A stretch of 64,000 nt of DNA from Flavobacterium sp. (GTDB lineage Bacteria > Bacteroidota > Bacteroidia > Flavobacteriales > Flavobacteriaceae). The position numbers and the translations under genes were made by a program. The stretch is from positions 1,342-65,341 of the forward strand of contig JASLED010000019.1 of NCBI GenBank assembly GCA_030151255.1. Direction: 5' to 3'. A model generated the notes under the pieces. That model ran no database searches, was not told the DNA's origin, and saw only the letters and a program-made list of their open reading frames with translations. Every line of letters begins with the position of its first letter. Position 1 is the first letter of the stretch. Of the stretch, positions 11,329 through 34,504 are shown piece after piece.

Positions 11329-11373
11329 ACGAATAGTATATAAAAAAAGGGAATCTTTCGATTCCCTTTTTTT
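11329..11373. repeat. left copy of a ~45-bp imperfect direct repeat bracketing the adhesin operon
   Basis: The sequence acgaatagtatataaaaaaagggaatctttcgattccctttt compares with acgaaatagtataaaacaaaaaagggaatctttcgattcccttc at 24394-24438. Confidence 0.7.
11342..11373. terminator. bidirectional intrinsic terminator shared by the response regulator (+) and the OmpA-family gene (-)
   Basis: An A7 run, the hairpin gggaatc-tttc-gattccc (11349-11366) and a T7 run. The T-run overlaps the stop codon of the minus-strand gene. Confidence 0.75.
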
Positions 11374-13348
11374 ATAGTTCAATTATTATAAATTCGCTTC
11401 TTCTATTTTCTAAATGTTGTTGCTCTAAGCATGGCACATTATTTCCACAATCATTAAGTAACTCACTCTCTCCATATCCTTTGCCCATAACACGAGATTT
11501 ATCTATACCGTGATCAATAATCCATTTCATAGTAGATTTTGCACGTTTATCTGATAATTTCATATTATATGCATCATTACCTCTACTGTCTGTATGCGAG
11601 CGAACGTCTATTTTAATGGTTGGATACATTTTTAATACCTCAACCACTTTTGCCAACTCTACTTCTGCATCTTTTCGAATAGTAGCTTTATCAAAATCAA
11701 AATAGATTTTTTCTAATTTTAATTTTTTAAACAAATCATCATTATCTGTAATAATTTCTTCTATTGGCTCTAATGCTGTATTTATTTCATACGTTGCAAT
11801 AACTTCATTATTTGTTGTTAAAACAACTTCTTTCGTATGAAAACCTTCAGCTTCCAATTTAATACGATATTTAACATCACAGCATTTTAATTCATCAATT
11901 AGATATGTTCCGTCTTTATTAATTGGCACTGCCTTAATTATACTATATGTTGCACTATAAAGTGTAGCAAACCCAGAAGTAATTGGCTCGTTTATAGCCT
12001 GATTAACTACTTTTCCTTGAACAATATGTTTGTATTCAACATGTTGTTTTTCTTGGAAAAAATAAATATCATCACCTCCTTCTCCACCCGGACGATTAGA
12101 GCTGATAAATCCTTTTTTTAGTTTAGTATTTAGATAAAACCCGAAATCATCAGATGAACTATTTATAGGTTCGCCTACATTTACCACATTACCAAAAGAA
12201 CCATCTGCGTTAATTTTTACCATAAAAACATCCAATCCTCCTAAACCTGGCCTTCCATCTGTTGAGAAATAAAGCATATAATCTTCCGTAATGAATGGAA
12301 ATGTTTCTCTGCCTTCTGTATTTATTTGTTTGCCTAAATTTTCTGGTTTTCCAAAAGAGCCATCTTCTTTAATTTCTACTCTAAACAGATCGCTTTGTCC
12401 AATTGTTCCATCTCTATCTGAAACAAAATACATCCATTTTCCGTCTGGTGACAATGCTGGATGAGCTGAATTAACATCTTTCAAATTAAACGATAAAGCT
12501 TGAGGATTGCCAAAAGAATCATCTTCTGTAAGTGTAGCTTTATATAAATGAAGAAAAGAATTTTTAAACTTTTTACTTTCTACAGCATCCTTTGTTTCAG
12601 GAGCATTTTGAGTAAAATACATCGTTTTGCCATCTGTGGTAAAAACAGCTGTAGAAACATTTATATCTTTTGCTTTGTTTTTATAAAAAAGTACAGGTTC
12701 ATCAAAACTTCCATCAATATTAATCTTTGAAGAATATAAATCGGTATACGCTTCGTTGGTCCATTTATGAATTTTGTTGGCTCCTTTTTGTGCTGTTTCT
12801 CTTGCTGAAGTAAAAATTAAATCATCTTTATAAATAGTTGCTCCATAATCTGAAAAAGAACTATTGATAGCAATTGGTTTAATTTCATATCTATTTGAAC
12901 GTTTTTCTATATCGCTTAGATAAGTATTTTTATTTGCATTGAAAATTTTTGCTCGAGAATCCTTTTCCTCTTTTTCTACAAAAACAGCCATATACTTATC
13001 TGATAAAGTATAATTGCCCACCGATCGCAATGTTTGAGCATAGCGATAATAATATTCGGAATTTAGCGCTTCTTTATTTGAATCTGCGTACTGAAATAAT
13101 TTGGCATACCAATCATTGGCTTGTTGCAGCTTTCCATTAAAATAATAAGCGTCGGCTATTTTGGTTAAAGTATTTACATTTTCATACCCGTTATTTACAG
13201 CCTTTTCATATACTTCTATAGCGTTTATATACTCGTATTTATCAAATCTTGTATCAGCTTTAATTTCCTTTCTTTCTTGTGCAAAACCATAAATGCCGCA
13301 CAAAAAAGCAAAACTTAGCCAACCAAGATTTATTCCTCTTATTTTCAT
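11372..13348 (-). CDS. OmpA-family peptidoglycan-associated protein with N-terminal TPR and TolB-like beta-propeller regions
   Basis: 658 aa with a signal peptide and a TPR-like N-terminus. It has repeated PD40-like motifs (SPDGKWMYFVSDR; FSTDGRPGLGGLDVF). The C-terminal OmpA_C-like domain reads IYFDFDKATIR...HTDSRGNDAYNMKLSDKRA. Confidence 0.85.
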   Translation of the reverse strand: MKIRGINLGWLSFAFLCGIYGFAQERKEIKADTRFDKYEYINAIEVYEKAVNNGYENVNTLTKIADAYYFNGKLQQANDWYAKLFQYADSNKEALNSEYYYRYAQTLRSVGNYTLSDKYMAVFVEKEEKDSRAKIFNANKNTYLSDIEKRSNRYEIKPIAINSSFSDYGATIYKDDLIFTSARETAQKGANKIHKWTNEAYTDLYSSKINIDGSFDEPVLFYKNKAKDINVSTAVFTTDGKTMYFTQNAPETKDAVESKKFKNSFLHLYKATLTEDDSFGNPQALSFNLKDVNSAHPALSPDGKWMYFVSDRDGTIGQSDLFRVEIKEDGSFGKPENLGKQINTEGRETFPFITEDYMLYFSTDGRPGLGGLDVFMVKINADGSFGNVVNVGEPINSSSDDFGFYLNTKLKKGFISSNRPGGEGGDDIYFFQEKQHVEYKHIVQGKVVNQAINEPITSGFATLYSATYSIIKAVPINKDGTYLIDELKCCDVKYRIKLEAEGFHTKEVVLTTNNEVIATYEINTALEPIEEIITDNDDLFKKLKLEKIYFDFDKATIRKDAEVELAKVVEVLKMYPTIKIDVRSHTDSRGNDAYNMKLSDKRAKSTMKWIIDHGIDKSRVMGKGYGESELLNDCGNNVPCLEQQHLENRRSEFIIIEL

Positions 13349-13363
13349 ACTATTTCAATTTTT

Positions 13364-14296
13364 TTAGAAGAACCTTGGTGCTCGTTTACGCGTATATCTA
13401 TTAAATATATCTGCTCGAATAAAAAACTCGTGAGAACCACTGTTGTAATGACTTAACTTAGTTGTATCTCTATCATACGAATATCCAATAAACATACTAT
13501 CATTAATTTGGAAGCCTAACAATCCGCTAACGGCAGCATCCCAACGATATGAAACCCCTGCAGTAAACTTATCTGAAAACAAGAAATTTGCTGTTAGATC
13601 AAGCTTTACCGGTGCTCCTTCTACTGCTTTCATTAAAAAAGCAGGTTTGAATTTTAAACTTGGATTGAACTCAAAAACATAACCTCCCATCAAATAAAAA
13701 TTCATTCGTTGTTTCATGGTTGTTACATCATTGTCGTTGTAACGATATGTTTCTAAAAAATTTGGAACAGAAAGCCCAATATATCCTGTGTCTGAATAAA
13801 CATAAACACCAGCTCCAATATTTGGTGTAAATTTATTGGTAATATTTTCTTGAATATTTACATCTGATGGATTATATGGATGTCCTTTCAAGTAATCAAC
13901 ATTAAGCAAATCGCCAGAAGCTTTAATTCCAAAAGCCATTTGATAAGAATAACTTATCTTTACTTTATAGGATAAATCAACAGCAATATTGTTATTGTCC
14001 ATAATACCAATACTTTCGTTTGTGTAAGAAACACCTATACCAAGATTAGAATTATGTATTGGAGAAGAAACAGCAAAGTTTGCTGTTTTTGGGGCTCCGT
14101 CTAATCCTACCCATTGCGTTCTATAATTTCCGAAAATACTCAACACTTCTCTTGTACCTGCATACGCCGGATTATAAGTAGAAGTATTGTACATATATTG
14201 TGCAAATTGAGGCTCTTGCTGTGCATAAGCTTGTGATAAAGCGCCTATAAACAATAAAGCAATTCCTTTTATTTTAATACTTTTAATCAACTTCAT
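13364..14296 (-). CDS. PorP/SprF-family type IX secretion system membrane protein
   Basis: 310 aa. A signal peptide is followed by QQEPQFAQYMYNTSTYNPAYAG, the hallmark N-terminus of PorP/SprF. The rest has beta-barrel-like alternating composition and the protein ends in an aromatic residue (RFF). Confidence 0.85.
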   Translation of the reverse strand: MKLIKSIKIKGIALLFIGALSQAYAQQEPQFAQYMYNTSTYNPAYAGTREVLSIFGNYRTQWVGLDGAPKTANFAVSSPIHNSNLGIGVSYTNESIGIMDNNNIAVDLSYKVKISYSYQMAFGIKASGDLLNVDYLKGHPYNPSDVNIQENITNKFTPNIGAGVYVYSDTGYIGLSVPNFLETYRYNDNDVTTMKQRMNFYLMGGYVFEFNPSLKFKPAFLMKAVEGAPVKLDLTANFLFSDKFTAGVSYRWDAAVSGLLGFQINDSMFIGYSYDRDTTKLSHYNSGSHEFFIRADIFNRYTRKRAPRFF

Positions 14297-14301
14297 TTTT
14301 A

Positions 14302-15561
14302 CTATTTCGTTTCTAAATGTAAATAACCTGCTTTCTTAATAGGTTTTGAAACACCATCTTTTTCGTATTGATAATTTACAATATAGTAATACGTACCTGA
14401 AGGTAATTTTTCGTTTTTACTAATTGTCATACGGTTATCTGAATAACCACGGAATACATTTCCGTTAGAATCATAGTTTTTAGTTTCAAATACTTTAGCT
14501 CCCCAACGATTGTAAATCTGAACTGAATTGTTTGGAAATCTATTAATGTTTTCGATAAAGAAATAATCATTTACTCCGTCATTATCTGGCGTAACAATAT
14601 TGTATATTACCACATCGCCATCTAATATTTCATCTATATTTACAGTAGCTAACGTAAAAACACCATATCCTTTTAGTGCTGTAACAGTTGTAACGGTTTT
14701 ATTTCCCATATCTACTACTCCACCTTCATTAACCCACATTAACTGTTTTTCGTCCCAGCGTACAATACGTAGATTTTTTTCAGGATCTGTTAATACACTA
14801 GAATCCGTTGTTCTGTTATCCCAACTTAATTCTAAGAATACATCATTAGTAACATCTGATGCTTTTTCTACCACCCAATATTCTTTTTTATTTAGGCTTA
14901 AAATAGAGTGATTTACATTGGTATGTTTTGTATAAAACTGTTCATCGCCATAAATATATTTACTTACAAAAACATCTTTTGATTTGGCAGGAGCAGAAAT
15001 GGCCGAATATCTATAATAACCTTCGTTTCCTATTGGAAAAACAAAAGCTTCCTTTCCTTCTTTATCAACCATTCCGTTTACATGGCTTTTATCGCTTGCA
15101 TAGAGTGCTTTTGATCCTTCAAGAAAAACAAATGAGCCATTTGTTTCATCAACTGAAATAATGCCATTCTCGAATTCAACAATACCTTTAGCAACAATAC
15201 CTGTTTCTACGATAAATGCCTGTTTTTCGGTAGAATTTTGAAACAAAACATTATTCATTCTAATCAATTGAGAACCATTAATCAATTGAGGTTGGTTAGA
15301 AGAAAAAATTGTTTTTGCTGCTTTTTTCTTATTTGCATTATTTTCAACAAAATCGAAAAAGCCATCGTTTTTAAGATTATTATACAAATACAAAGTTCCG
15401 TTGTTAAAAACAGTTGCGCCTTCCTTGTTTTCTAATGGAAAAAGAGAAGACATTTCTGTATTTGGCTGAATATATAATCCACCATAATTAACGGTTTGTC
15501 CGAAGGCGAAACCTCCTGTCAAAGTGCAAGCCAATATCCAGATTTTATGGTTTTTCATCAT
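14302..15561 (-). CDS. T9SS type B C-terminal sorting domain (gliding motility-associated CTD) protein
   Basis: 419 aa with a signal peptide. The C-terminal ~95 aa are VVIYNIVTPDNDGVNDYFFIENINRFPNNSVQIYNRWGAKVFE...LPSGTYYYIVNY...KKAGYLHLETK. This matches the CHU_C/type B CTD pattern. Confidence 0.85.
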   Translation of the reverse strand: MMKNHKIWILACTLTGGFAFGQTVNYGGLYIQPNTEMSSLFPLENKEGATVFNNGTLYLYNNLKNDGFFDFVENNANKKKAAKTIFSSNQPQLINGSQLIRMNNVLFQNSTEKQAFIVETGIVAKGIVEFENGIISVDETNGSFVFLEGSKALYASDKSHVNGMVDKEGKEAFVFPIGNEGYYRYSAISAPAKSKDVFVSKYIYGDEQFYTKHTNVNHSILSLNKKEYWVVEKASDVTNDVFLELSWDNRTTDSSVLTDPEKNLRIVRWDEKQLMWVNEGGVVDMGNKTVTTVTALKGYGVFTLATVNIDEILDGDVVIYNIVTPDNDGVNDYFFIENINRFPNNSVQIYNRWGAKVFETKNYDSNGNVFRGYSDNRMTISKNEKLPSGTYYYIVNYQYEKDGVSKPIKKAGYLHLETK

Positions 15562-15573
15562 ACAATTTTTAAA

Positions 15574-16194
15574 TTATTCTTTAACAACAAAAACAATATT
15601 CATAATTGAATATGCAGAACCATTACCAATAACTCTATACTTCATTAAACCATTTTCGTCAATTGTAATAGCTTCAAAAACAGTAGCATCATAATCGGTT
15701 ACGTAATAATACAAATCAGTTGCTGAAGGAAAATAAGGAATAACTTCTGGAGCGTTTGCACTTTTTACATGGTTTTGTCCAGTTAATGCAAACTGATTCT
15801 TATATTCTTGATACAAATCTTTTTCTACAAAAGTTCCGTTCGGAGTTATGGTTCCAGTATCAAAAACAATAGATGGCATATAAAAGAATTTTACTGCCTT
15901 ATTATCTGTAGTTACCATTTGTTGCCATTTTGTACCATCATTGTAATAAAAGCCCGGAACAACATCATTCTGTTTTATTGTATTATAAACAGTCATACCT
16001 GCAACATGTTCTTCTAGAGGAGCTGCACTGTTTGTATACTCAAGTTCTAATCTGGGTAATAGAAGCCCTTTATTTAGTGATTCTATTTCAAACATTGCAC
16101 TTGTGTTAATTGTTGGAGTACCTCCAACTTTGGTTTGAGCAAATCCTACTGTACTTAGTGTTGCTAATGCTAATGTTAAATATAACTTTTTCAT
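15574..16194 (-). CDS. secreted hypothetical protein; short paralog sharing the N-terminal module of the upstream 555-aa protein
   Basis: The start was moved to MKKLYLTLALATLSTVGFAQ (ATG at 16194), which gives a clean Sec signal. The mature N-terminus TKVGGTP...KGLLLPRLEL...VYN...PGFYY..W aligns with the 555-aa neighbour. Confidence 0.6.
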   Translation of the reverse strand: MKKLYLTLALATLSTVGFAQTKVGGTPTINTSAMFEIESLNKGLLLPRLELEYTNSAAPLEEHVAGMTVYNTIKQNDVVPGFYYNDGTKWQQMVTTDNKAVKFFYMPSIVFDTGTITPNGTFVEKDLYQEYKNQFALTGQNHVKSANAPEVIPYFPSATDLYYYVTDYDATVFEAITIDENGLMKYRVIGNGSAYSIMNIVFVVKE

Positions 16195-16220
16195 ATTGTT
16201 GTTTATTCTTACTTTTAGAA

Positions 16221-16255
16221 ATGATGGGGCAATCAACTAAGCTTTTCCCCATCAT
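16221..16255 (-). other. intercistronic stem-loop between the 555-aa and 206-aa genes
   Basis: The arm atgatgggg (16221-16229) pairs with ccccatcat (16247-16255), giving a 9-bp stem and a 17-nt loop. No U-tract follows on the coding strand. Confidence 0.4.
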
Positions 16256-16276
16256 CTCATTTTTGATTAATTTAGA

Positions 16277-17944
16277 TTATGGCTGAACAGTTTCATCTGA
16301 TGCAAATTCAATTACTACATCATAATTTCCTGCTGGCAACATGAAATATTGGTTTCCTACTCCAATATTAAAATTAATTTTTCCATCCGTTCCTACGCTA
16401 ACATTTGTTGTACTTGATGTAATTACATTTGTACCCTGCATTAATTTGATAGATAACACTTCTGAAACAGTTTGTTCTTGAACTGTTACAGGTGTAGCAG
16501 TTGCAGAATAAGCAGAAATTGTAGTTGTACCTTTAGCTAGATATACTTTTTTACCATTGTAAGTATTTCCTGTAAATACAAGATTTGTTGTATTATTCAA
16601 ATGATTGCCCAGCGCTTGTTTGATTGTTAGGTTTGTATCATTTTTAATTGTATTTACAATAATAGAAGCAGGAAGTACAATCTCCTGATTTGTTTTTGTA
16701 TTATCTGCATTTGTTATTATTTGATACAATGTATTTGGCGTATTTGGATCATTGTCGTGATCTCCAAAATAAACATTACCTCCATCGTTTAAGATTTTAG
16801 TAATTGCATTCTGAATATCTTCATTTTCTGTAATAGAAATAAGCATATCTTCCGTTAGGTTGATATAATCTACTTTATTATCTTCTGCTTTATATTGATA
16901 ATAAATTTGTCCTTTTTTTACTGTTGCATTTGTTGGTGCAGTTCTGGTTTCAGCAAATTCTGGCAAAGTACCAGTAGCCTCTATTTTACTGCGTAAAATT
17001 TGAGTTTTTGTTTCAAAATCTTTTAAGTTGATAGTTTCATATTTAGCTTCATCCCAATATTGAAATACCCAGATTTTTTTAGCAGGATCAGTTGGAAAAG
17101 CAGGATCTTGAATTTGAGTATAAATAACATTTCCTTTTGAAAACTGAGAAATATATTGAATGTATTCTTCAATGGTTGTAAAAGTATTGCCATCAATAGT
17201 AATATCGATTGTAGATTCCATAATCTCTTGAATATTATTTACAACTGTTCCTTTTACATCTATTGCCATAGCTCCTGGAGCATCATCAGGAATATTAGCT
17301 AATGTATTAGCCGCATCAGCTGCTAACCAATCGATGATAGTTTGCTCTGAAAAATAGATGAAACCTGTTACTTTATCATTAGTATCTTTTACTTCTCTAA
17401 CAAATGTTTTTGTTTCAAACCCTGCAACTAGATTTCTTAAATTAATAATCTCTTTTGTGTAAACTTTAGTTAGTGCATCATATGTAACAGAATAAAGGTT
17501 TCCGTTTTCATAAACTAAAGTTGTATGATTATTTGTTGTGCCAGAATCATTACCTGGATTTGTAGGAATAATATAATTAATGAATTTTTTTATTTCAGAT
17601 AAATCTCCTAATAAAGAGTTTAAAACCTTAGCGTCTGTAATTCTATTCCAATATCCACCGTTTAGTTTTGCAGAATCTGTTGTCCAATAGTAAAATCCGT
17701 TAGGAATGGTAGAGGTAGAAGTACCAACATTATTATACACTAATAAACTTTCTACTTTATCACCAACAATTGGTTCATAAATGTCTAAATCCGTCAACAC
17801 AACTCTTGGAATTAATATCCCTTTGTCATCTGCTTTCACCTCTAATTGTGTTGCTGTTTCTGGATTAGGAGTACCTATACCTACTTGAGCGTTTGAAAAA
17901 TAAGTAGCTCCTAATAATGCTGCGATTAATGTAATTTTTTTCAT
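16277..17944 (-). CDS. secreted hypothetical protein with an N-terminal VGIGTPNP...KGILIPRV module
   Basis: 555 aa with the signal peptide MKKITLIAALLGATYFSNAQ and Thr/Asn-rich beta-type composition. I recognise no catalytic motif. Confidence 0.65.
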   Translation of the reverse strand: MKKITLIAALLGATYFSNAQVGIGTPNPETATQLEVKADDKGILIPRVVLTDLDIYEPIVGDKVESLLVYNNVGTSTSTIPNGFYYWTTDSAKLNGGYWNRITDAKVLNSLLGDLSEIKKFINYIIPTNPGNDSGTTNNHTTLVYENGNLYSVTYDALTKVYTKEIINLRNLVAGFETKTFVREVKDTNDKVTGFIYFSEQTIIDWLAADAANTLANIPDDAPGAMAIDVKGTVVNNIQEIMESTIDITIDGNTFTTIEEYIQYISQFSKGNVIYTQIQDPAFPTDPAKKIWVFQYWDEAKYETINLKDFETKTQILRSKIEATGTLPEFAETRTAPTNATVKKGQIYYQYKAEDNKVDYINLTEDMLISITENEDIQNAITKILNDGGNVYFGDHDNDPNTPNTLYQIITNADNTKTNQEIVLPASIIVNTIKNDTNLTIKQALGNHLNNTTNLVFTGNTYNGKKVYLAKGTTTISAYSATATPVTVQEQTVSEVLSIKLMQGTNVITSSTTNVSVGTDGKINFNIGVGNQYFMLPAGNYDVVIEFASDETVQP

Positions 17945-17979
17945 CTGTTTTTCCCTTAAAATTGTATTGTTTTTTCCCT

Positions 17980-20900
17980 TTATTTAATCTTATGCGTAAT
18001 ATTTAAATTCGATTTTACCCCGCAATTTTTTATATCTAAACGCACTGGTATTCTTGTTCCTACTTCACATCCATTTCTATATACCTGAACATATAACACA
18101 CTATATTGTGGACCTAATGTTCCTTGATTATCAAGTATATCTCTATATACCTTCAATCCTTTTGGAATTTTATATGTATTTATTGATTGTTCAATTAACG
18201 GTATACCTCCTGTTGCTTCTTTATACACTTTATAAGTATCACAAGCTTGAGAAGCATCGGTTTTTATAATAAAATATCCATCATTACAAACCCCTAAAAT
18301 ATCTGATGTAATATCTTCAATACCATCTACCTTAATTTTTGGCAAAACGCTTACATCAAATACTTTTGTAAAATCGCCTAATACACCTACTACACTTCCG
18401 TAAGCAATTTTTACACGATCAAAAGGTTTGTCTGTTTCTTTTACAATCATTTTAAACTTATTATTGTAGCCTAACCCAAGTAATTTTAATCCTAAAACAT
18501 CCACGCCGCTTGTGCCGTCAATTACATCACCTACTTTTTCTTGTCCTAAATATCTTTGAATTGTATATCCTTTAATTAATTCTAAACTTAAAATAGGATT
18601 ACCTGGATTTTCGATAATAATTTGAATTTGATCGCCTGGCATGGCTTGCTGTTTTAATACAACTGTTAACGTAGCACGATTTGCAACTGCAACACCTCTG
18701 GAAATCATTGCGTAACTCGTTAAATCATTATCTACTGCGTTCCAAGCATCAGAAACAGAAGCCGTAGCACTTGCTACACCCAAGCCAATATCTTCTACTC
18801 CATGTAATACATCTAAAACTGAAGCATGAATATCTTCTACAACTGGTGCGCAATAATTTGAAGAATAATCTACAACTGACTTATTATAATACACACTGTA
18901 AACCTTTGCTAATTGTGCAACACTTACAAGAGCCCCTAAAGTAATACGTACGCCTTTATATGCTTTTGGTCCAGAAATGTTAGAAGGAACAAATGTGAAT
19001 TCAATTACGTTATCAGAAGCTAATAAATCTAATAATCCGCCTTGTACTGATTGTGCTACACCAATAATTACGTTACTTCCATCTAGTCCTTGTACTGTAA
19101 TTCCACCTCCTACAACCAAGCCACTATATTCTTTACCAAGCTTAATTGTAACTGGTGTTCCTGCTGGCACTTCATTTTCAAACTTAACATCTTGCCAAGC
19201 AGTACCTATTCCTAACAATCCCACTCCTGTAACAATTGTTGAGTGTGTTTTTGGATTATTATCAATTGTATTTGCAGTATCTGTAACTCCACCTGTAATT
19301 ATTGATCCCCAAGTAGAACTTCCTTTTGCATAAATTCTTTCTACTTTTGGAGGACATAAACTGCTATCGTAAACTGTAACTATTATATTTTTATAAGATG
19401 AACATCCATTATTTTCTGCCACAACTGTGTAGGTATAAATACCTGGAGTACTAAACGAAGCAGTGCTCGCAGTAATTACATTACCATTAGTGTCGTACCA
19501 CTTAATAATACCATTATTAGCTGTAGCTGTTGGTAATGTAATGTTTGTGTTTACTACAGTCATTATTTGTTGACTTCCTATTATGGTAATAACTGGAGCA
19601 AGTATTTCTGTTACAATAAATTCATCTGAAACCTCAGACAGACTACCTCCTTTTGTATAAACAACAGTATATTTTCCTGGCGAACTAGTGGTTAAGGTTT
19701 TTTCTTTCCCAAAATTTACATTTGTATTATTTCCATTACTCACTAAAGAGCTATCTATTAATTCTCCATTAAAATACCATTGATAAGTATCCGCATCTGC
19801 TGTATCTATGTTTGAATCTAATGTAAACTCTGTGTTAGAACATAATGCATTTGCTTTATCAGAAGTAATTACAGCTTTTACCAACAATGGTAATGTTGTA
19901 CTAACTTTGATAATGGTACCTGGTTGTTTTGAAACATCAGGAGTGGTTGGATTTTCGTTATTTAAAGGTGGATATGATGGATACGAAGTTTCCGTTCCTA
20001 CTTTAGAAAATGCAATATTTTTGATTTCAATAATTCCTTGTAAATCTTGAATTACATTAACAACAAACGTAAATGTTTGAACAGCACCAGGAGCAATAGT
20101 TGTAGGAATATTAAACGTAACTAATCCGTTAGCTTCCTGCCCTTGAGTAGACGAAACAAACTCCATTCCTACTGGAATATTATCTGTTATAACAATTCCG
20201 CTAACTGGAGTATTGCTTACGTTTTTAACATGAATCGTATATTCTACTTCTTCTCCTCCATATACCGAGGTTAAAGTTTCATCTCCATTAATTTTATATG
20301 ACTTCCACGTAACTAAACTTTGGTTTGATCCGGCTGGTTTACACAATCTTTCTACACTGTAAACTTCAACAGGAGGAAATACTCCAACATTTACAAGATT
20401 CTTAAGTTCAATTACAATTCTATTATATTGTCCATTTATTTGAAAAGGAATATCTGCAGCTTGAGATGAGTTTAGTAAGTTAATTACATCCACACCTTGT
20501 ACCAAACCATTATTCCAGTTTAATTGTTCCACAAATGTTTCATCATTATATGCAGCAATTCTTAAACTTTCTAAAAGAGGAACAGTTACTCCTCCTGTAC
20601 CCACTTTTAATCGAATATTTGTAATTTCATTTGGCTCAGACAATGTTGTAAAATCAATCCATTGCTTCACAGTTGAACCAACCGCAATAGTTCCTAATGT
20701 AATTTGTGATCCGTGCGTTGAATTACCATCAATTGCACGTTCTGGATAAGTAACACCTGCACCACCCAATGCATTTACAGATAAGTTGATTCCGCTATAT
20801 TCATAAGAAGTTACAAATGCATCTGTACAGTTATTTGTTGTTGTTTCATAACACATACCGTATACATTCATTGTATTTGGTTTTGCTAATAAACCTACTA

Positions 20901-23700
20901 CACTATTTGTATTATCTGTAATACGTACCGATTTATATGCCTGAGTTGGTGTAATAGCTAAATAAGTACGTCCTAATTTATCTATTACTACTCTTATTTT
21001 ACCAGCATTGTAACTAGATGTTATATTTTGAGAACCTTGTTTTAAGATTGTTGTTCCGTTTGCGTCTTTTACATCTATTGTAAACGAATGATCTCCTAGT
21101 AATAATCCATCAACTATTCCTGACACTAAATTTCCTAAGCTTCCACTAAGTAGTTTTTTTAATTCAGAACCTTCAAAATCAATTCTCACATATGAGGTTG
21201 TATTTGCAGGCACTACGTTATCATATCCTAATTCTACAAAACCTTCATGCTTATTTATGCCAAGTAAAAATCCGGCACCCGATTCTAATGTTGCATAAGA
21301 ATCAAAATCGTCATCGAATAGGTTATCAAGATCATTTGCGTTTGCTGCGTCAATAATTTTTGAAGCACAAACTGGAGCTATAAACGGAGATGCTGTTTTT
21401 ATTTCCGGACAGTTTTCACTTACTCTTTTTACGCTGTATAATCGAACAGGAGCTGTTACTCCAGCGCTTAAAATTGTTCCCACTTGTATTTCTACACGAT
21501 CAAATACTTGTGTGGTAGGAAAAGACAAAGTTTGAATTCCTCCAGATTTAAATAAAGCTAATAAATCTAAATTATTAATTAATCCTTGTTGCAGTATAAA
21601 TGATTCTTTTTCTTCTCCTCCTAGATAAGTAACAATTCTATATCTACCTAAAACATCTGCTGATAACAAAGAATTTGGATTAAATTGTAAACGTACTTTT
21701 ACTTCATCGCCAACAATTGAAGGCTGTCCGAAATAAATAGTTTGTTTTACCATTGCTGCTACCCCAACTGTACCTACGCTGATTTCTGAAAATTCTGACG
21801 AATTTCCGCTAATTGCATAATACGGATTAGTAACCCCTGCACCATTTAACCCTGCAACACTTAAGCTTAATCCTTGTTGATTATATGAAGTAAATTGCGG
21901 AGCTAAACACGCATCTTTACCTATTTCTCGACACATATTGTATACCTTCAATACAGCAGGTTTACCTGTACTTAATAAACTTGTACTTTTATTGGTAATT
22001 TTTATGCTATTATATTTTGCACTTGGCGTTACTGCAATATAATATCTGCCAATGTTGTCTTGTACTAATGTAACAGTTCCTCCAGTAGTTGATGAAAAAC
22101 CATTGTTACTTACTGATTCTGTAACTAATGTTGCTCCATCAAAAGCCTTTACATCAAAATAATGTTTGCCTATTACTAGCCCAAGTACACCATCTACAAC
22201 TTGGCCTAATGTTCCTCCTAATAATTTTTCAAGAACTTCCTTTTCCATATCAATACGGATATAAGAAGTTGTATTAGCAGGTACAACATTTGAATATCCT
22301 AGATGAATCATTCCTGTTTTTGCTGCAGAAGACAACAAAGTACCATCGTCTGCATAAAGTGTTGCATACGACTCATTATTATTGTCAATAGCATTATAGG
22401 CAAAATCAACATTATCAAAATCTAATAAAGAAGTTGAACAAGAAGGAGTTTCGAATGGAACTGAAGTTGGAACTGGAATTGTATAATTTGGATTTACACA
22501 AGCTAATTCATAATATCTTTGTACATCATAAATACGCACCCCTCCACTTGCTACTCCAACAGTTACTCCTTTATTTAGTCTAACTTCTACTTTATCAAAT
22601 GCTTTACCAGGTGCAAACGTTAAGGTACCAGGAGTACTTCCTCCTATTAAACCTAAAATATCTACCCCATTTAACAAACCTCCTTTAAGAGATTTTGAAT
22701 ATACCAAAGTTGAGCCTTTATAAGCATTTACCTCAATTCCGGCTAATAAATCTAAATTTAAAAGTCCTGTATTTGCTCCTAATTTTATATTAAAAGTACT
22801 TTCTGGAGAAGAAGTTGTTGGAAAATAAAAATATTGAGAAATATGACCACCAACATTTACATCTACCAAGCTACCCGATTGCAACAGTGAATAAGTATCT
22901 AAACTATCATCAATTGCAGCATTTAAACGTTGTGACTGAATCTGTAATAGGTCCAAAGAAATACCTGCGCCATCATATGAAGTTCCTAAAGGTTTACCAC
23001 ATGAAGCAGAGCTTCCGCTTGTATATGTAAAGGCTTTGTAAACATCAATTTTATATTCTGTAAACAAGCCAACCAAAGACAATGCTTTATTTGAAATTTT
23101 AATACTTCTATAATCTTGATCAGGATTAATAGCTAATAAATATTTACCTTCTTTATTTTCTATTAACCTTACTCTATCTGTATTAAAACCATAAACAATA
23201 CCACTGCCGCTACCACTGCTACCATTACTACTTGCTGTTAATACCGTTGTATTTGCATTATTTATTGCTTCTACTTTTATCTCTTGCTTACCAAGAAGTA
23301 TAGCACCTAATAGATCGCTTAAAGTTTTACCTAGAGTTCCTCCTAATAAAGCCGAAAATAAATCAGAATCTCCACTTAACTCAACATAAGACCAGGTATT
23401 TGCTTTTATCTCATTTGGAAATTTAACCTCAATAAAACTAGTATAATTACCCAACGCTAATAAACCTCCTGGAGATGCATATAAAGTTGCGTAAGTATTA
23501 TCATCAGTATTTACATTTAAAGGGTTGTCAACTACATTTGGTCCTAATAGAGATTTTTTACTTGTATCATGTTTTGAATATTGCGCTATTACTTTGCCTT
23601 GTGCCCAAGAGTGACTCATTGGTACAAAAAACAGAATTAATAATGCAACTGCGAAAAAACTCATTGAATTCCTTTTTCTTAGTAGTTCTTTGATAATCAT
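17980..23700 (-). CDS. giant modular cell-surface/adhesin-like protein (1906 aa) with no recognizable T9SS CTD
   Basis: Uninterrupted 5.7-kb ORF with a Sec-type signal (…FFAVALLILFFVPMSHSWAQ). It has three ~360-aa super-repeats, a DUF11-like segment (VEYTIHVKNVSNTPVSGIVITDNIPVGMEFV), Ig-like segments with Y.WY and GC motifs, and two further degenerate modules. Confidence 0.8.
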   Translation of the reverse strand: MIIKELLRKRNSMSFFAVALLILFFVPMSHSWAQGKVIAQYSKHDTSKKSLLGPNVVDNPLNVNTDDNTYATLYASPGGLLALGNYTSFIEVKFPNEIKANTWSYVELSGDSDLFSALLGGTLGKTLSDLLGAILLGKQEIKVEAINNANTTVLTASSNGSSGSGSGIVYGFNTDRVRLIENKEGKYLLAINPDQDYRSIKISNKALSLVGLFTEYKIDVYKAFTYTSGSSASCGKPLGTSYDGAGISLDLLQIQSQRLNAAIDDSLDTYSLLQSGSLVDVNVGGHISQYFYFPTTSSPESTFNIKLGANTGLLNLDLLAGIEVNAYKGSTLVYSKSLKGGLLNGVDILGLIGGSTPGTLTFAPGKAFDKVEVRLNKGVTVGVASGGVRIYDVQRYYELACVNPNYTIPVPTSVPFETPSCSTSLLDFDNVDFAYNAIDNNNESYATLYADDGTLLSSAAKTGMIHLGYSNVVPANTTSYIRIDMEKEVLEKLLGGTLGQVVDGVLGLVIGKHYFDVKAFDGATLVTESVSNNGFSSTTGGTVTLVQDNIGRYYIAVTPSAKYNSIKITNKSTSLLSTGKPAVLKVYNMCREIGKDACLAPQFTSYNQQGLSLSVAGLNGAGVTNPYYAISGNSSEFSEISVGTVGVAAMVKQTIYFGQPSIVGDEVKVRLQFNPNSLLSADVLGRYRIVTYLGGEEKESFILQQGLINNLDLLALFKSGGIQTLSFPTTQVFDRVEIQVGTILSAGVTAPVRLYSVKRVSENCPEIKTASPFIAPVCASKIIDAANANDLDNLFDDDFDSYATLESGAGFLLGINKHEGFVELGYDNVVPANTTSYVRIDFEGSELKKLLSGSLGNLVSGIVDGLLLGDHSFTIDVKDANGTTILKQGSQNITSSYNAGKIRVVIDKLGRTYLAITPTQAYKSVRITDNTNSVVGLLAKPNTMNVYGMCYETTTNNCTDAFVTSYEYSGINLSVNALGGAGVTYPERAIDGNSTHGSQITLGTIAVGSTVKQWIDFTTLSEPNEITNIRLKVGTGGVTVPLLESLRIAAYNDETFVEQLNWNNGLVQGVDVINLLNSSQAADIPFQINGQYNRIVIELKNLVNVGVFPPVEVYSVERLCKPAGSNQSLVTWKSYKINGDETLTSVYGGEEVEYTIHVKNVSNTPVSGIVITDNIPVGMEFVSSTQGQEANGLVTFNIPTTIAPGAVQTFTFVVNVIQDLQGIIEIKNIAFSKVGTETSYPSYPPLNNENPTTPDVSKQPGTIIKVSTTLPLLVKAVITSDKANALCSNTEFTLDSNIDTADADTYQWYFNGELIDSSLVSNGNNTNVNFGKEKTLTTSSPGKYTVVYTKGGSLSEVSDEFIVTEILAPVITIIGSQQIMTVVNTNITLPTATANNGIIKWYDTNGNVITASTASFSTPGIYTYTVVAENNGCSSYKNIIVTVYDSSLCPPKVERIYAKGSSTWGSIITGGVTDTANTIDNNPKTHSTIVTGVGLLGIGTAWQDVKFENEVPAGTPVTIKLGKEYSGLVVGGGITVQGLDGSNVIIGVAQSVQGGLLDLLASDNVIEFTFVPSNISGPKAYKGVRITLGALVSVAQLAKVYSVYYNKSVVDYSSNYCAPVVEDIHASVLDVLHGVEDIGLGVASATASVSDAWNAVDNDLTSYAMISRGVAVANRATLTVVLKQQAMPGDQIQIIIENPGNPILSLELIKGYTIQRYLGQEKVGDVIDGTSGVDVLGLKLLGLGYNNKFKMIVKETDKPFDRVKIAYGSVVGVLGDFTKVFDVSVLPKIKVDGIEDITSDILGVCNDGYFIIKTDASQACDTYKVYKEATGGIPLIEQSINTYKIPKGLKVYRDILDNQGTLGPQYSVLYVQVYRNGCEVGTRIPVRLDIKNCGVKSNLNITHKIK
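20341..23538 (-). repeat. three divergent ~360-codon super-repeats inside the giant ORF (similar at protein level, not identical DNA)
   Basis: By hand count the repeats cover residues ~55-400, ~425-762 and ~785-1120. Recurring strings include SYATL, VVPANTTSY[IV]RID, LL[GS]G[ST]LG, GR[YT]Y[IL]A[VI]TP, VY[NG]MC, GAGVT.P..AI[SD]GNS, FDRVEI and VR[IL]Y[SD]V. Confidence 0.7.
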
Positions 23701-24393
23701 AGCTTAATAATTAATGGTAACAATCTTTTTTAGATTTTTTCAAATACTTAAATAACAGCATTAATCACATTTTTTATGTTAAATAAAAAACACTAAAAAC
23801 ATATTCAATATGAATTATTTAATACAAAAAATTAATAAAAATAACTTTAAAACATAATAAACAAACAATAAAAACATCCATATTGTTTATATATAAAATA
23901 ATTACATTATATTAACATTTAATACATTATAGCAAAATATTAAAAAAATTTTTTTTATTAACAAAAAAGAATTTAAGATACAGTTAATTAAGAAAAAACA
24001 ATTATAATCAAAAGAAAATTCACCAATACTGCTAAATAATTAATTTTAATTAATATTTTATGTTTAAATTTATTTTATTAGAAAAGTTATTTTTTAATTT
24101 TTACACAAAACTAATTAATATTTAACAAAAATGGACCTTTTAGGATACCTTCCAGGTGTCAATCGATCCGAAAAATTAAACACACTCTTCGCAAAGCAAG
24201 TATTTACAAAGGATACACATCTATTTAGAATAAAAATAAATTATACCTTTTTCTTCTAAAATTGATAAAACACTTCTGTTTTTAAAGCAAAAACTAAGTT
24301 TAATCATCATTTTTCAATTACTAAAAACGGGAGAAAATTCTATTACAATTTTATAAACATCAAACTTTTCTTATCAAAAAAAGAAAAAAAAAC

Positions 24394-24438
24394 ACGAAAT
24401 AGTATAAAACAAAAAAGGGAATCTTTCGATTCCCTTCT
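24394..24438. repeat. right copy of the ~45-bp imperfect direct repeat
   Basis: It has the same 18-nt hairpin core and the same cgaa(a)tagtata flank as the copy at 11329-11373. Confidence 0.7.
24411..24434 (-). terminator. intrinsic terminator downstream of the Zn-metallopeptidase gene (identical hairpin to 11349-11366)
   Basis: The hairpin gggaatctttcgattccc is at 24417-24434. On the minus strand it is followed by T6 (complement of the A6 at 24411-24416). Confidence 0.7.
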
Positions 24439-24472
24439 TCTACAATTTAAATATAATTTAGAACAATACTTA

Positions 24473-31926: not shown

Positions 31927-32140
31927 TTTTCTCTTTTTCTAAAATTTTATTTACAATTTCCTGCTCCTTATCTTTATTTTTTTCAGCTACAATAGACTGA
32001 ATTGTTTTTGGTACCTGAACAGTATATAAATCAGACACATCTAATGATAGCTTAATTATATTCAAATTGTCAATTACCTTATCTTTCAGATAATCTGGCA
32101 ACTTTTCGTTTTGCAGTATTTTCTTAAAAGGATTTTCCAT
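31910..32140 (-). CDS. small hypothetical protein between the ECF sigma factor and the membrane protein
   Basis: 76 aa, Lys/Glu-rich, with no TM segment. It starts directly after the sigma-factor stop and overlaps the downstream ORF by 17 nt, which suggests translational coupling. Confidence 0.4.
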   Translation of the reverse strand: MENPFKKILQNEKLPDYLKDKVIDNLNIIKLSLDVSDLYTVQVPKTIQSIVAEKNKDKEQEIVNKILEKEKNGKNL

Positions 32141-32713
32141 TTATGACAATGAATTATATAATTCAACAATCTTTTTCTTGGCTCTATGCAATCTCATTTT
32201 TATCGCACTCTCTCCCATCTCTAACATATCAGCCATTTCCTTGATCGATTTATCTTCCTGATATTTCATAATCAGCATAATTTTATCTTCAGGATCAATC
32301 AACGCAAGCGCTTCTTCCAACCGTTTTACAGTAAGTGAAAAAATTTCTTCATCTGTAATTTCATCCTCCAAACTTGTCACATAATGATAGTCTTCTTGAT
32401 ATTGTTGATTTTCGTGTTGCCGTTTTAGGATAGATTTCGAGTAATCTACACAATGATTATAGGTAAACGAATACAACCAAGTAGAGAATTTTGACTCTCC
32501 TTTAAATGTTTTTAAGTTTAGATAAATCTTCACAAAAACGTCTTGAGTTAGGTCTTCGGCAGCATCACGAGATTCAGCAAAACTCAAACATTTTTGATAT
32601 ACTTTTTGACCATATCGATCATACAAAACACCAAACAAGCTTGTATTACCGTTATGAACAATGAATTGAACCAGCTCTTCATCGCTCATTAAAACAAAGT
32701 TTTTACTTTGCAT
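32141..32713 (-). CDS. RNA polymerase ECF-type sigma-70 family factor
   Basis: 190 aa with region 2 (AEDLTQDVFVKIY...FSTWLYSFTYNHCVDY) and region 4.2 (SIKEMADMLEMGESAIKMRLHRAKKKI). Confidence 0.85.
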   Translation of the reverse strand: MQSKNFVLMSDEELVQFIVHNGNTSLFGVLYDRYGQKVYQKCLSFAESRDAAEDLTQDVFVKIYLNLKTFKGESKFSTWLYSFTYNHCVDYSKSILKRQHENQQYQEDYHYVTSLEDEITDEEIFSLTVKRLEEALALIDPEDKIMLIMKYQEDKSIKEMADMLEMGESAIKMRLHRAKKKIVELYNSLS

Positions 32714-32782
32714 ACTTATTTTCGTACTACTTTATTATACATTAAACCTTCTTTAAGTTCAATATGGCTTAATATATTTGAA

Positions 32783-33376
32783 CTATCTTTCTTTTATTTG
32801 CAATAATCTTTCTACATATTTTCCAATTACGTCAAATTCAATATTTACCGTATCTCCAACTTTATAGTATTTAAACAATGTATTTTCTTTTGTATAAGGT
32901 ATAATTGCCACGCTAAACGAATTAATTTCTGAATCAACTACGGTAAGACTCGTTCCGTCAATTGTAATAGAACCCTTAGAAATAGTTGTATGTTTTACAG
33001 CCGAATCATATTCAAAACCATAATAAGTACTTCCATCAGCATCTTTTACAAAAGCACAAGTTGCAACTGCATCAACATGCCCTTGCACAATATGCCCATC
33101 CAATCGCGCGTTCATTAACATTCCTCTTTCTAGATTAATTGACTGCCCAACCACCCAATTACCTAAAGTTGTAACATCAATAGTTTCTTTTATGGCTGTT
33201 ACTGTAAAAGTATCTTCCTCAATATTCACAACCGTTAAACAAACACCGTTATGCAAAACACTCTGATCTATTTTTAATTCATTTACAAACGAACATGATA
33301 TCGTTAGATGAATATTACCTTTCTCTTTTGCAATATTTTTAATAATTGCTATTTCTTCAACAATTCCTGTAAACAT
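32783..33376 (-). CDS. ribE: riboflavin synthase (alpha chain)
   Basis: 197 aa with the N-terminus MFTGIVEE and a duplicated lumazine-binding repeat (NGVCLTV / DGTSLTV). Confidence 0.9.
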   Translation of the reverse strand: MFTGIVEEIAIIKNIAKEKGNIHLTISCSFVNELKIDQSVLHNGVCLTVVNIEEDTFTVTAIKETIDVTTLGNWVVGQSINLERGMLMNARLDGHIVQGHVDAVATCAFVKDADGSTYYGFEYDSAVKHTTISKGSITIDGTSLTVVDSEINSFSVAIIPYTKENTLFKYYKVGDTVNIEFDVIGKYVERLLQIKER

Positions 33377-33393
33377 TACTCCAATTATTTTAT

Positions 33394-33401
33394 TAAATTT
33401 G
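33394..33401 (+). promoter_or_regulatory. candidate -7 box (TAAATTTG) upstream of pdxA
   Basis: An exact TAnnTTTG match 33 nt before ATG 33434, in the ribE/pdxA divergent region. Confidence 0.35.
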
Positions 33402-33433
33402 TTTTCAAAATTACTAATTATTTAAACGAAACT

Positions 33434-34504
33434 ATGAGCCATAAAGAAGAAAATATTAAAGTAGGAATATCTATCGGCGATTTAAACGGTATTGGTCCAG
33501 AAGTAATACTTAAATGTTTCGAAGACAATAGAATGCTTGAGTTTTGTACACCTATAATATTTGGTAGTTCAAAACCATTATCATACGTTAAAAAAAACAT
33601 CAATAGCAATGTGAATTTTCAAGGCATTGAAAGTATTGAACAAGCTATTACCGGTAAAGTAAACGTATTAAATCTTTGGAAAGAAAATGTAAACATAAAC
33701 TTTGGCCAAAATGATCCTTTGGTTGGAGAATACGCTATAAAATCTTTTACCGCAGCAACAGCCGCTTTAAAAAATGGCGATATAGATGTTTTAGTTACTG
33801 CTCCTATCAACAAATACAATACTCAATTAGAAGATTTCAAATACCCTGGACACACTAATTATTTAAACGAACAATTAGAAGGCGAAGCATTAATGCTATT
33901 GGTAAGCGATGAATTAAAAGTTGGTTTATTAACAGATCACTTACCCATTAAAGATGTAGCACAAGCTATAACTCCAGATTTGATTATTAAAAAAGTAAAA
34001 ACAATAGAAAATGCATTAATCAATGACTTCAATATTCTAAAACCACGCATAGCTGTACTTGGATTAAACCCACACGCAGGTGACGAAGGTGTTATAGGAT
34101 CAGAAGAAATAGATATCATAAAACCAACAATCACGAAACTAGCCGAAGAAGGCGTTTTAGTTACCGGTCCATTTCCAGCAGATGGATTTTTTGGTTCTCA
34201 ATTGTATTTAAAATTTGATGCAGTAATAGCTTGCTATCACGATCAGGGCTTAGCTCCATTTAAAGCACTTTCATTTAGCAAGGGAATAAATTATACTGCC
34301 GGTTTAAACAAAATACGAACTTCACCCGATCATGGCACCGCTTATGATATAGCAGGAAAAAACCTAGCAGACCCTACCTCATTTATAGAAGCCTTATATT
34401 TGGCATTAGATATTTTCAAAAATAGAAGTAGAAATGAAGAAGCAGCTAGCAATCCGTTAATTCCTCAAGAAAAAGAAAATAGCACAAAAAAATTTGATAA
34501 TTAG
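33434..34504 (+). CDS. pdxA: 4-hydroxythreonine-4-phosphate dehydrogenase
   Basis: Motifs GISIGDLNGIGPE, GHTNYL, LNPHAGDEG and PDHGTAYDIAGK. The track ORF starts at 33308 but would overlap ribE by 69 nt. The in-frame ATG at 33434 (MSHKEENIKVG) follows a TAAATTTG -7 box at 33394-33401. Confidence 0.9.
   Translation: MSHKEENIKVGISIGDLNGIGPEVILKCFEDNRMLEFCTPIIFGSSKPLSYVKKNINSNVNFQGIESIEQAITGKVNVLNLWKENVNINFGQNDPLVGEYAIKSFTAATAALKNGDIDVLVTAPINKYNTQLEDFKYPGHTNYLNEQLEGEALMLLVSDELKVGLLTDHLPIKDVAQAITPDLIIKKVKTIENALINDFNILKPRIAVLGLNPHAGDEGVIGSEEIDIIKPTITKLAEEGVLVTGPFPADGFFGSQLYLKFDAVIACYHDQGLAPFKALSFSKGINYTAGLNKIRTSPDHGTAYDIAGKNLADPTSFIEALYLALDIFKNRSRNEEAASNPLIPQEKENSTKKFDN

Follow-up and report, generated by a model that had tools for sequence, protein, structure and literature searches.

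The subject of this report is a cluster of six genes on the minus strand of contig JASLED010000019.1 from a Flavobacterium sp. (assembly GCA_030151255.1), of which a stretch of 64,000 nucleotides (nt) was analysed and is referred to here as the window. From the promoter-proximal to the distal end, the cluster encodes a giant adhesin of 1906 amino acids (aa), a fibre-like protein of 555 aa, a minimal fibre protein of 206 or 220 aa, a small protein of 419 aa that ends in a C-terminal domain (CTD) of type B belonging to the T9SS (type IX secretion system), a PorP/SprF-family protein of 310 aa and a PorE-like protein of 658 aa. Judged by gene and sequence comparison, these six genes appear to be one copy of a conserved and widespread surface cassette of the Bacteroidota, composed of five component types and present in at least two classes. 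What seems to be new here is that a known triad, made of a CTD protein, a PorP-like protein and a PorE-like protein, is joined to adhesins and fibres which have no known sorting signals but carry conserved terminal tags. The explanation proposed for this arrangement, which we regard as evenly poised between right and wrong, is that the small protein acts as an adaptor or anchor for the tagged partners on a platform made of the PorP-like and PorE-like proteins.

The six open reading frames (ORFs) are co-directional and separated by gaps of 35, 82, 12, 5 and 15 nt, the second of which is reduced from 82 to 40 nt with the TTG start of the minimal fibre protein; the ATG of its 206-aa version, at position 16194, is the start of the signal peptide. 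Sec-type signal peptides are present on all six products, with a cleavage pattern of A or G followed by Q. Terminator-like sites were not found within any of the five intergenic gaps, and the counts of promoter-like and terminator-like sites across the operon are those of shuffled sequence, on which grounds a splitting of the operon by internal terminators or promoters was rejected. A first-pass annotation, made from the letters of the sequence, had described this layout and had recognised the distal three products as a type-B-CTD protein, a PorP/SprF protein and a PD40/OmpA protein; both descriptions were borne out, the latter by matches to PF13585, TIGR03519, and PD40 and OmpA. The synteny of the six genes, a point that it had also raised, turned out to be conserved.

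The distribution of the cassette was followed in a scan of one genome per GTDB species, for which the N-terminal part of the small protein was the only query and our own profiles were used for annotation. The small protein has 232 relatives in the GTDB species representatives, and 80 loci were kept. The exact six-gene order recurs in 18 other loci (L007-L013, L015-L022, L055, L077 and the metagenomic L087). A gene of the PTL family, to which the two fibre-like proteins belong, lies within 5 kb upstream of the small-CTD gene and on the same strand in 46 of 54 cases (~85%). Downstream, a PorP-like gene follows immediately in 56 of 71 loci, and PorP plus OmpA genes are found in 48 of 66. In many other loci, the triad is preceded by at least one further conserved gene, and this in turn by one to three large PTL_trimer proteins. 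In Formosa agariphila, fibres and a 1152-aa protein with giant-type modules precede the triad; the component types also recur in Flavobacterium, and in Arenibacter they stand together in a different gene order. The order differs as well in Echinicola soli, of the class Cytophagia, where PorP and OmpA genes are followed by those for a 526-aa small protein, a 1187-aa fibre and a 371-aa tailed protein that ends GLLISNPMLPSKGRD. The 526-aa protein is composed of the shared N-terminal part (33% identity over ~300 residues), DUF11 and CHU_C.

The distal triad is made of recognisable families. The 419-aa protein matches CHU_C (PF13585) at residues 318-414 with an E-value of 1e-25 and 89.9 bits against a cut-off of 27, while its score of 34.0 bits against TIGR04131 is marginally under the cut-off of 35. 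Its AlphaFold2 (AF2) model is confident, with a predicted local distance difference test (pLDDT) of 88 and a predicted TM-score (pTM) of 0.80, and contains many short strands (~23-160) and a β-sandwich (~165-307), followed by the CTD. The latter resembles the CTD of the substrate NucA as seen in 8glk_D, a T9SS translocon complex (Foldseek probability 1.00, TM(target) 0.61, 94 columns). Nothing significant was found for the N-terminal part of the model in the fold search of the PDB, and by sequence the only solved-structure relative of the protein is GhpA, matched through the CTD. The 310-aa protein, the gene of which begins 5 nt downstream, belongs to the PorP/SprF family (TIGR03519, 266.5 bits against a cut-off of 90.55; PF11751, 285.9 bits) and is presumed to be the cognate shuttle or anchor of the 419-aa protein. 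Its sequence has zero cysteines and thus no CxC motif of the SprF type, which fits the static anchor class.

The 658-aa protein shows the domain series TPR, β-propeller, CarboxypepD_reg-like and OmpA_C, with matches to PD40 and OmpA above the cut-offs, and to TPR_12 and CarbopepD_reg_2 below them; its homologs have precomputed PD40, CarboxypepD_reg and OmpA matches. Its alignment with the PorE model NF052230 is full-length (16-628 versus 10-597) and scores 329 bits, where the cut-off is 600, and against NF053607 (CHU_0125_OmpA) it reaches 421 bits, where the cut-off is 620. With the equivalog cut-off missed, the protein appears to be a PorE-like paralog and not PorE itself, and it is presumed to be the peptidoglycan tether of the cassette. 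The PorE of Porphyromonas gingivalis is a lipoprotein. Residues 1-24 of the 658-aa protein show Cys17 inside the hydrophobic core, and then a signal-peptidase-I-like site, with GFA before and QE after the cleavage.

To our knowledge, every substrate in current models of the T9SS carries its own C-terminal domain. The type A and type B CTD models of Pfam and NCBIfam did not match the whole giant, 555-aa and 220-aa proteins at E ≤ 0.1, nor their C-terminal fragments at E ≤ 10. Alignments of the C-terminal domains of the 220-aa and 555-aa proteins, designated p220C and p555C, and of the C-terminus of the giant reached a probability of at most 3% when compared with a 73-sequence CHU_C alignment by hhalign. 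None of the 114 p220C family members scanned matches a canonical CTD, and the precomputed Pfam annotations of hundreds of homologs of the giant and 555-aa proteins include no CTD and no PF18962. In NCBIfam the 555-aa and 220-aa proteins have no family at all, and the giant has no CTD-like match, the presence of a type C model in the library being unconfirmed. A type A profile iterated over all collected sequences from the CTD of one giant-family protein (P0334, discussed below) gained no further members. The presence of cryptic canonical CTDs in the three upstream proteins was rejected, as the comparisons with Pfam, with NCBIfam and, by hhalign, with CHU_C were all negative. No Cys occurs in the first 45 residues of the giant, 555-aa and 206-aa proteins, and hence no lipobox.

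These results agree with the first-pass annotation, according to which the three upstream proteins have Sec signal peptides and neither a type A or type B CTD nor a lipobox Cys; in the search of all six proteins with profile hidden Markov models (HMMs), a type B CTD was found on the 419-aa protein only. The further claim that the 419-aa product is the only one that can be addressed to the T9SS stands for the known signal classes, but has to be qualified in view of the conserved and strictly C-terminal elements that its partners carry.

The first of these elements, p220C, was found in 759 representative clusters (E ≤ 1e-3) among 1.84 billion representative proteins. Its carriers range from 108 to 2309 aa, and the Lys of N-I-V-F-V-V-K is the very last residue in 122 of the 150 top matches; in the collected loci, the median distance of p220C to the stop codon is 0. 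All carriers are 'hypothetical proteins' (9 of 10 checked clusters carried a name), and the organisms named are Flavobacterium, Myroides, Echinicola, Galbibacter, Aequorivita, Maribacter and, in one record, an organism labelled Prevotella sp. 10(H). The p555C β-sandwich, which stops 3 residues before the C-terminus of the 555-aa protein, lies strictly at the C-terminus of 30 ORFs, which measure 543-1229 aa. At the end of the giant there is a tail of 12 residues, VKSNLNITHKIK, which follows the motif [ST]-N-[PLR]-x-[ILV]-[TY]-x-[KR]-[IVL]-[KN]; further examples in the giant family are IISNPMLTNKIKK, LITNPMIYQKVN and LLSNPNITNKLRN. This tail was found in 97 of the 111 giant-family proteins, the exceptions being mostly partial sequences or proteins with fused canonical CTDs.

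The tail is also present on proteins that are unrelated to the giant. The same kind of tail ends several proteins encoded upstream of the small-CTD gene, namely RCC1/DUF7507 proteins (590-1441 aa), a family of ~860 aa and the 371-aa protein of Echinicola. When the motif was searched as a regular expression in the last 18 residues, it was detected in 48 of 1017 ORFs, where 1.5 would be expected by chance, and all 48 are located in cassettes, upstream of the small-CTD gene and on the same strand. A metagenome scan anchored on the tail gave two contigs, of which the informative one shows a fibre with p220C, a tailed three-module protein and the start of the gene for the small protein, in that order. 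From the comparison of their sequences, the C-terminal elements of the three partners could each be an unrecognised sorting or docking signal. As a separate observation, a Cys is often found 3-8 residues before the tail motif (NCGVKSN, KDCIISNP, LCNRSYLITNP and DCSAVTNP; 17983-18030 in the window), and is missing in the HTYVPLKGNGLLITNP type.

The giant has no relatives among solved structures by sequence, and its domains, listed in Table 1, include CLIPPER, a class of stalk domains that are stabilised by isopeptide bonds and belong to extracellular fibrillar adhesins (PMC12617251). The homolog from Sphingobacterium yanglingense (L006) is a single ORF of 4064 aa with a CHU_C of its own at the end and with PorP and OmpA genes behind it, and P0334, another member of the family, ends in a type A CTD (...VEKVMITK). 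Since a type A or type B CTD is fused to relatives from other taxa, the giant family is evidently T9SS cargo where its members have such a domain. Neither of the two proteins carries the 12-residue tail, so that the tail and a fused CTD are alternatives at one position. In the window, the giant lacks the CTD, which is found only on the small protein encoded next to it. Two further giant-family proteins of the Weeksellaceae type, P0333 and P0347, end in ...GWECTTNQCNQ, with neither tail nor CTD. P0333 has a precomputed match to PTL_trimer, a domain that is N-terminal everywhere else, and the local Pfam scan leaves only its C-terminal ~100 residues unassigned.

The 555-aa and 220-aa proteins had been called two paralogs in the first-pass annotation, which is accurate for the N-terminal PTL_trimer region (~70 residues), to which their similarity is confined, and fails beyond it. 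Both proteins and their homologs bear the precomputed annotation PF26696 'PTL_trimer', the model of which is absent from the local copy of Pfam; no description of PF26696 or PTL_trimer was found in the literature searched. A profile of our own for this region matched 104 ORFs, always at the N-terminus, from around residue 30 of the stop-to-stop ORFs. The 555-aa protein, which has at least 411 homologs, is cleaved between A19 and Q20 and consists of the N-terminal PTL_trimer domain, a variable middle and the C-terminal β-sandwich. Its mature N-terminus, QVGIGT..P...L...G..IPR, is invariant across an alignment of 47 homologs and is disordered in the monomer model, the pLDDT of which is 72 overall.

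Foldseek comparison of the 555-aa model with the PDB gave no significant match, none being better than E 0.03. Against BFVD, 12 matches at E ≤ 1e-3 were obtained, most of them to proteins of phage tails or tail fibres, to collagen-like proteins or to unnamed ones, with low TM-scores; the best is a putative tail protein (E 5e-6), and the matches have TM-scores of at most 0.15. A PHROGs search with the fibre-like proteins found nothing, and the sequence search of solved structures yielded none for the 555-aa protein and only chance matches for the 220-aa protein and the p220C profile. Relatives of the fibre-like proteins contain collagen triple-helix, YadA-head, UspA1 and cadherin repeats, of which the collagen, YadA-head and UspA1 repeats fit trimeric fibres; the fibres of the cassette would accordingly be trimers, a state that we infer from such relatives.

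Three further observations concern this family. In Formosa agariphila (L005, 2992-9825), a 2278-aa protein with collagen triple-helix repeats and a filamin-like repeat has p220C at its end. In Flavobacterium sp. JP2137 (L002, 2488-2844), the PTL_trimer genes have a bAvd/23S_rRNA_IVP gene directly upstream of them, on the opposite strand. A 2222-aa PTL protein (L003, 257-6925) shows a faint match to Mtd_N, and the BFVD matches include Mtd_N-containing phage proteins, which may point to a link with diversity-generating retroelements.

In the arrangement proposed here, the small type-B-CTD protein would be exported by the T9SS and held by its cognate PorP-like barrel, while the PorE-like protein would tie the outer membrane to the peptidoglycan, giving a static, wall-anchored platform. 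The part of the small protein outside the CTD would be the adaptor, on which the terminal tags of two kinds of partner may dock: those of the phage-tail-fibre-like proteins of the cassette (here the 555-aa and 206-aa proteins) and that of a large lectin/CLIPPER-type adhesin with a short conserved tail (here the 1906-aa protein). The PorP/PorE platform would thereby display the tagged proteins, which might first be taken through the T9SS together with the small protein. Both the physical contacts and the way in which these proteins would cross the outer membrane are proposed on comparative grounds. For the giant, a docking role is the more plausible one, as a 12-residue tail is too short for a folded CTD.

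Several points weigh against this explanation. The contacts between the small protein and its partners are ones that we infer from gene and sequence comparison, and no report of T9SS export of a protein without its own CTD was found in the literature searched. The C-terminal domains of the fibres are CTD-like in size and position and could be autonomous signals, in which case an adaptor would be unnecessary for their export. The similarity to phage fibres is weak, with low TM-scores only. Furthermore, the small protein served as the anchor in collecting the loci, which makes the co-occurrence rates one-sided. Within 6.5 kb upstream, 8 of 58 small-CTD genes have no tagged partner, and some small-CTD genes are orphans or part of bare triads, so that the small protein can exist without its neighbours. 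Conversely, PorP and OmpA genes are lacking from 7 loci that encode a shorter giant, both fibres and the small protein.

The strongest competing explanation, somewhat unlikely in our estimation, takes the three upstream proteins as independent T9SS substrates with unrecognised CTD classes, represented by p220C, p555C and, in the giant, the Ig_7-like domain together with the tail. On this view the small protein would be a merely co-regulated surface protein, or at most an anchor after export, and no signal would be given in trans. Such classes would account for elements that stand strictly at the C-terminus of Sec-exported proteins whose lengths differ widely, and p220C and p555C, with ~100-110 aa and, in the case of p555C, seven strands in a β-sandwich, match known CTDs in size and fold class. 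Their endings, hydrophobic residues and then Lys, resemble the last strand of a type A CTD, such as that of P0334, and in the CTD of RgpB the terminal residues are essential. Within the giant family, the tail and a canonical CTD exclude each other. With type C (ChiA), there is already a third class of CTDs, one that the A and B models can miss (PMC10202324). However, neither HMM nor profile-profile comparison relates the elements to type B or to any CTD model of Pfam or NCBIfam, and there is no T9SS CTD in the top 50 PDB matches of the 555-aa model, whereas the 419-aa model had one. The tail of the giant is far too short for a folded CTD and follows unrelated domains. Independent signals would also leave unexplained why the elements are so tightly tied to one family of small CTD proteins across two classes.

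A bolder version of the adaptor proposal, which we think unlikely, is that of a signal in trans. The tags would bind the N-terminal part of the small protein, which would ferry the signal-less adhesins through the T9SS. Binding might occur by strand insertion or might even be covalent, and the cargo would be folded and possibly trimeric. The adhesins would be left mounted on the wall-anchored base formed by the PorP-like and PorE-like proteins.

A third possibility is that these surface genes are merely clustered and co-transcribed, with no mutual dependence, and that the synteny reflects block duplication and shared regulation. The cassette is indeed often multi-copy, with up to eight or more copies and thus many paralogs per Myroides genome, and seems to duplicate as blocks. 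Assemblies often break inside it (L027, L031, L044, L051, L064, L085 and other short contigs), and short cassette contigs have about twice the coverage of their genomes, with 349x versus ~170x in Myroides sp. C6-3 and 397x versus ~200x in M. odoratimimus EB1487, which suggests near-identical cassette copies collapsing in assembly. The orphan copies of the small gene mentioned above would also be in keeping with mere clustering. Nevertheless, the five component types stay together in Arenibacter and in Echinicola, a member of another class, with their order rearranged, and such rearrangement across genera and classes would not be expected from recent block duplication. Furthermore, only genes upstream of the small-CTD gene have the tail motif, despite the unrelated domains that precede it, and we therefore consider mere clustering quite improbable. 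It is hardly credible that the three upstream proteins are not surface proteins but remain in the periplasm, or at the outer membrane on its inner face, as structural or regulatory partners of the PorE-like and PorP-like pair; although they have Sec signal peptides without a known outer-membrane translocation signal and PorE-like proteins are periplasmic (PMC9143113), the domains found in them and their relatives (CLIPPER, Ig_7, lectin-like, collagen, YadA-head and cadherin) are those of fibrillar adhesins outside the cell (PMC12617251), type A or type B CTDs occur in homologs of the giant, and a multi-domain rod of 1906 to 2700 aa would probably fit the periplasm poorly.

The closest known systems share the distal triad. 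In P. gingivalis, PorE, PorP and PG1035, a surface protein of ~50 kDa and unknown function, form a complex (PMC9143113). Five operons of Flavobacterium johnsoniae combine a PorE homolog, a type B substrate and an SprF-like shuttle; one of the substrates, Fjoh_3952, is observed as static foci, whereas SprB moves (PMC12618676). Fjoh_3952 is co-encoded with the shuttle Fjoh_3951 and the PorE-like Fjoh_3950, and a static wall-anchored complex has been speculated by the authors (PMC12618676). The triad found in the window, with a CTD protein, a PorP-like and a PorE-like protein, is identical in composition and order, and its substrate is similar in size to PG1035 (46 kDa here); static, wall-tethered localisation has been observed or proposed in those systems. 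In the published systems the type B protein is itself taken to be the adhesin or cargo and accessory partners without a CTD have not been described, whereas in the window tail-tagged adhesins and PTL_trimer fibres accompany the triad, and the N-terminal part of the small protein is specific to its family. This comparison was made from the published descriptions of Fjoh_3952, Fjoh_1645 and PG1035.

A second point of reference is the sprCDBF operon, in which, according to Rhodes et al. (2011) as cited in later work, the motility genes sprC and sprD precede the genes for SprB, which has a type B CTD, and for SprF (PMC12635249, PMC10202324). SprC travels on the same track as SprB, and SprF is coupled to the moving gliding track via a CxC motif in its periplasmic C-tail, disulfide-linked to GldK (PMC12635249). 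Both loci have extra genes ahead of the type-B-CTD protein and its PorP/SprF-family partner. They differ in that the giant SprB bears the CTD itself, which in the window is on a separate small protein, and in that the PorP-like protein here has no Cys through which to join a GldK track and is accompanied by a PorE-like anchor. General family searches of the operon proteins gave no SprC-like or SprD-like match, no dedicated comparison having been made.

The giants with a fused CTD (L006 and P0334) have the same N-terminal lectin-like modules of ~375 aa and the same CLIPPER/Ig stalk domains as the giant of the window, and in L006 PorP-like and OmpA genes follow the giant gene as well; they differ in having their own type B or type A CTD and no tail, where the giant of the window ends in an Ig_7-like domain and VKSNLNITHKIK. 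With phage tail fibres and trimeric adhesins, the fibre-like proteins share an N-terminal attachment or trimerisation domain, a variable repetitive shaft and a C-terminal domain. Unlike phage tail fibres, the 555-aa and 220-aa proteins have Sec signal peptides and a chromosomal housekeeping context. Docking of a short C-terminal strand or tag is known from donor-strand exchange in the type V pili of Bacteroidota and from the split isopeptide pairs SpyTag and SnoopTag. The tags proposed to dock here may be comparable, being short, conserved, β-strand-like C-terminal peptides with Asn and Lys, although strand exchange or a covalent bond is in this case an analogy that serves as a lead only. No description of the cassette, the tail or the NIVFVVK domain was found in the literature searched, and nothing relevant on piggyback export through the T9SS or on collagen-like or tail-fibre-like T9SS proteins.

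With regard to the surroundings of the operon (Table 1), the window has a G+C content of ~32% and is assigned to a Myroides species; Myroides proteins are the best matches for every protein of the operon. A strong terminator-like hairpin at 24411-24440 ends the preceding gene, which encodes a Zn-peptidase, and the non-coding region between this hairpin and the giant gene has no match in Rfam. The cluster is flanked by rimP, nusA, infB and a peptidase gene on one side and by a response regulator gene, asd and recJ on the other. A mobile or phage origin of the locus was rejected because the flanks are housekeeping genes; there are no Rfam matches and no phage genes nearby. The cumulative GC skew of the window has its minimum at ~32000-34500, where gene orientation turns from minus to plus, which could be a coding-strand effect only.

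Table 1. Features of the six-gene cluster, with positions in the window
Feature	Position	Strand	Description
Leader/promoter region	23701-24410	minus	Very AT-rich, non-coding, ~710 nt; from the upstream gene's terminator to the giant gene
Giant adhesin	17980-23700	minus	1906 aa (1894 aa from the second Met)
Domains of the giant			Signal peptide; three tandem lectin-like modules of ~375 aa (aa 46-1123); DUF11/CLIPPER (aa 1145-1229); Ig_7 (aa 1381-1443); fourth module (aa ~1447-1810); sub-threshold Ig_7-like last domain; C-terminal tail
Tail of the giant	17983-18018	minus	Extreme C-terminal 12 residues, VKSNLNITHKIK-COOH
Fibre-like protein	16277-17944	minus	555 aa
PTL_trimer domain of the 555-aa protein	17630-17887	minus	aa 20-105; region common to the 220-aa protein
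p555C	16289-16582	minus	Seven-strand β-sandwich, ~100 aa (aa 455-552), AF2 pLDDT ~91
Minimal fibre protein	15574-16236	minus	220 aa (TTG) or, more likely, 206 aa (ATG at 16194)
Parts of the 220-aa protein			Signal peptide, PTL_trimer, C-terminal p220C
p220C	15577-15921	minus	~110 aa, ends ...SIMNIVFVVKE
Small type-B-CTD protein	14302-15561	minus	419 aa (46 kDa)
Parts of the 419-aa protein			Signal peptide; all-β N-terminal part 'ndom' (aa 22-312); CHU_C CTD (aa 318-414)
PorP/SprF-family protein	13364-14296	minus	Outer-membrane β-barrel, 310 aa
PorE-like protein	11372-13348	minus	658 aa

The cassette is common, and all of its components are annotated as hypothetical. Type B substrates have been described as single adhesins paired with a PorP-like shuttle. 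If the tags are new T9SS sorting signals, the predicted secretome would be enlarged; if they dock on a carrier that acts in trans, a new principle of export and display would be at hand. A signal in trans, if true, would be the first case of piggyback export by the T9SS and a natural tag-and-catcher display module in the Bacteroidota. Myroides is an opportunistic pathogen with a poorly known surface biology, for which the outcome would matter as well.

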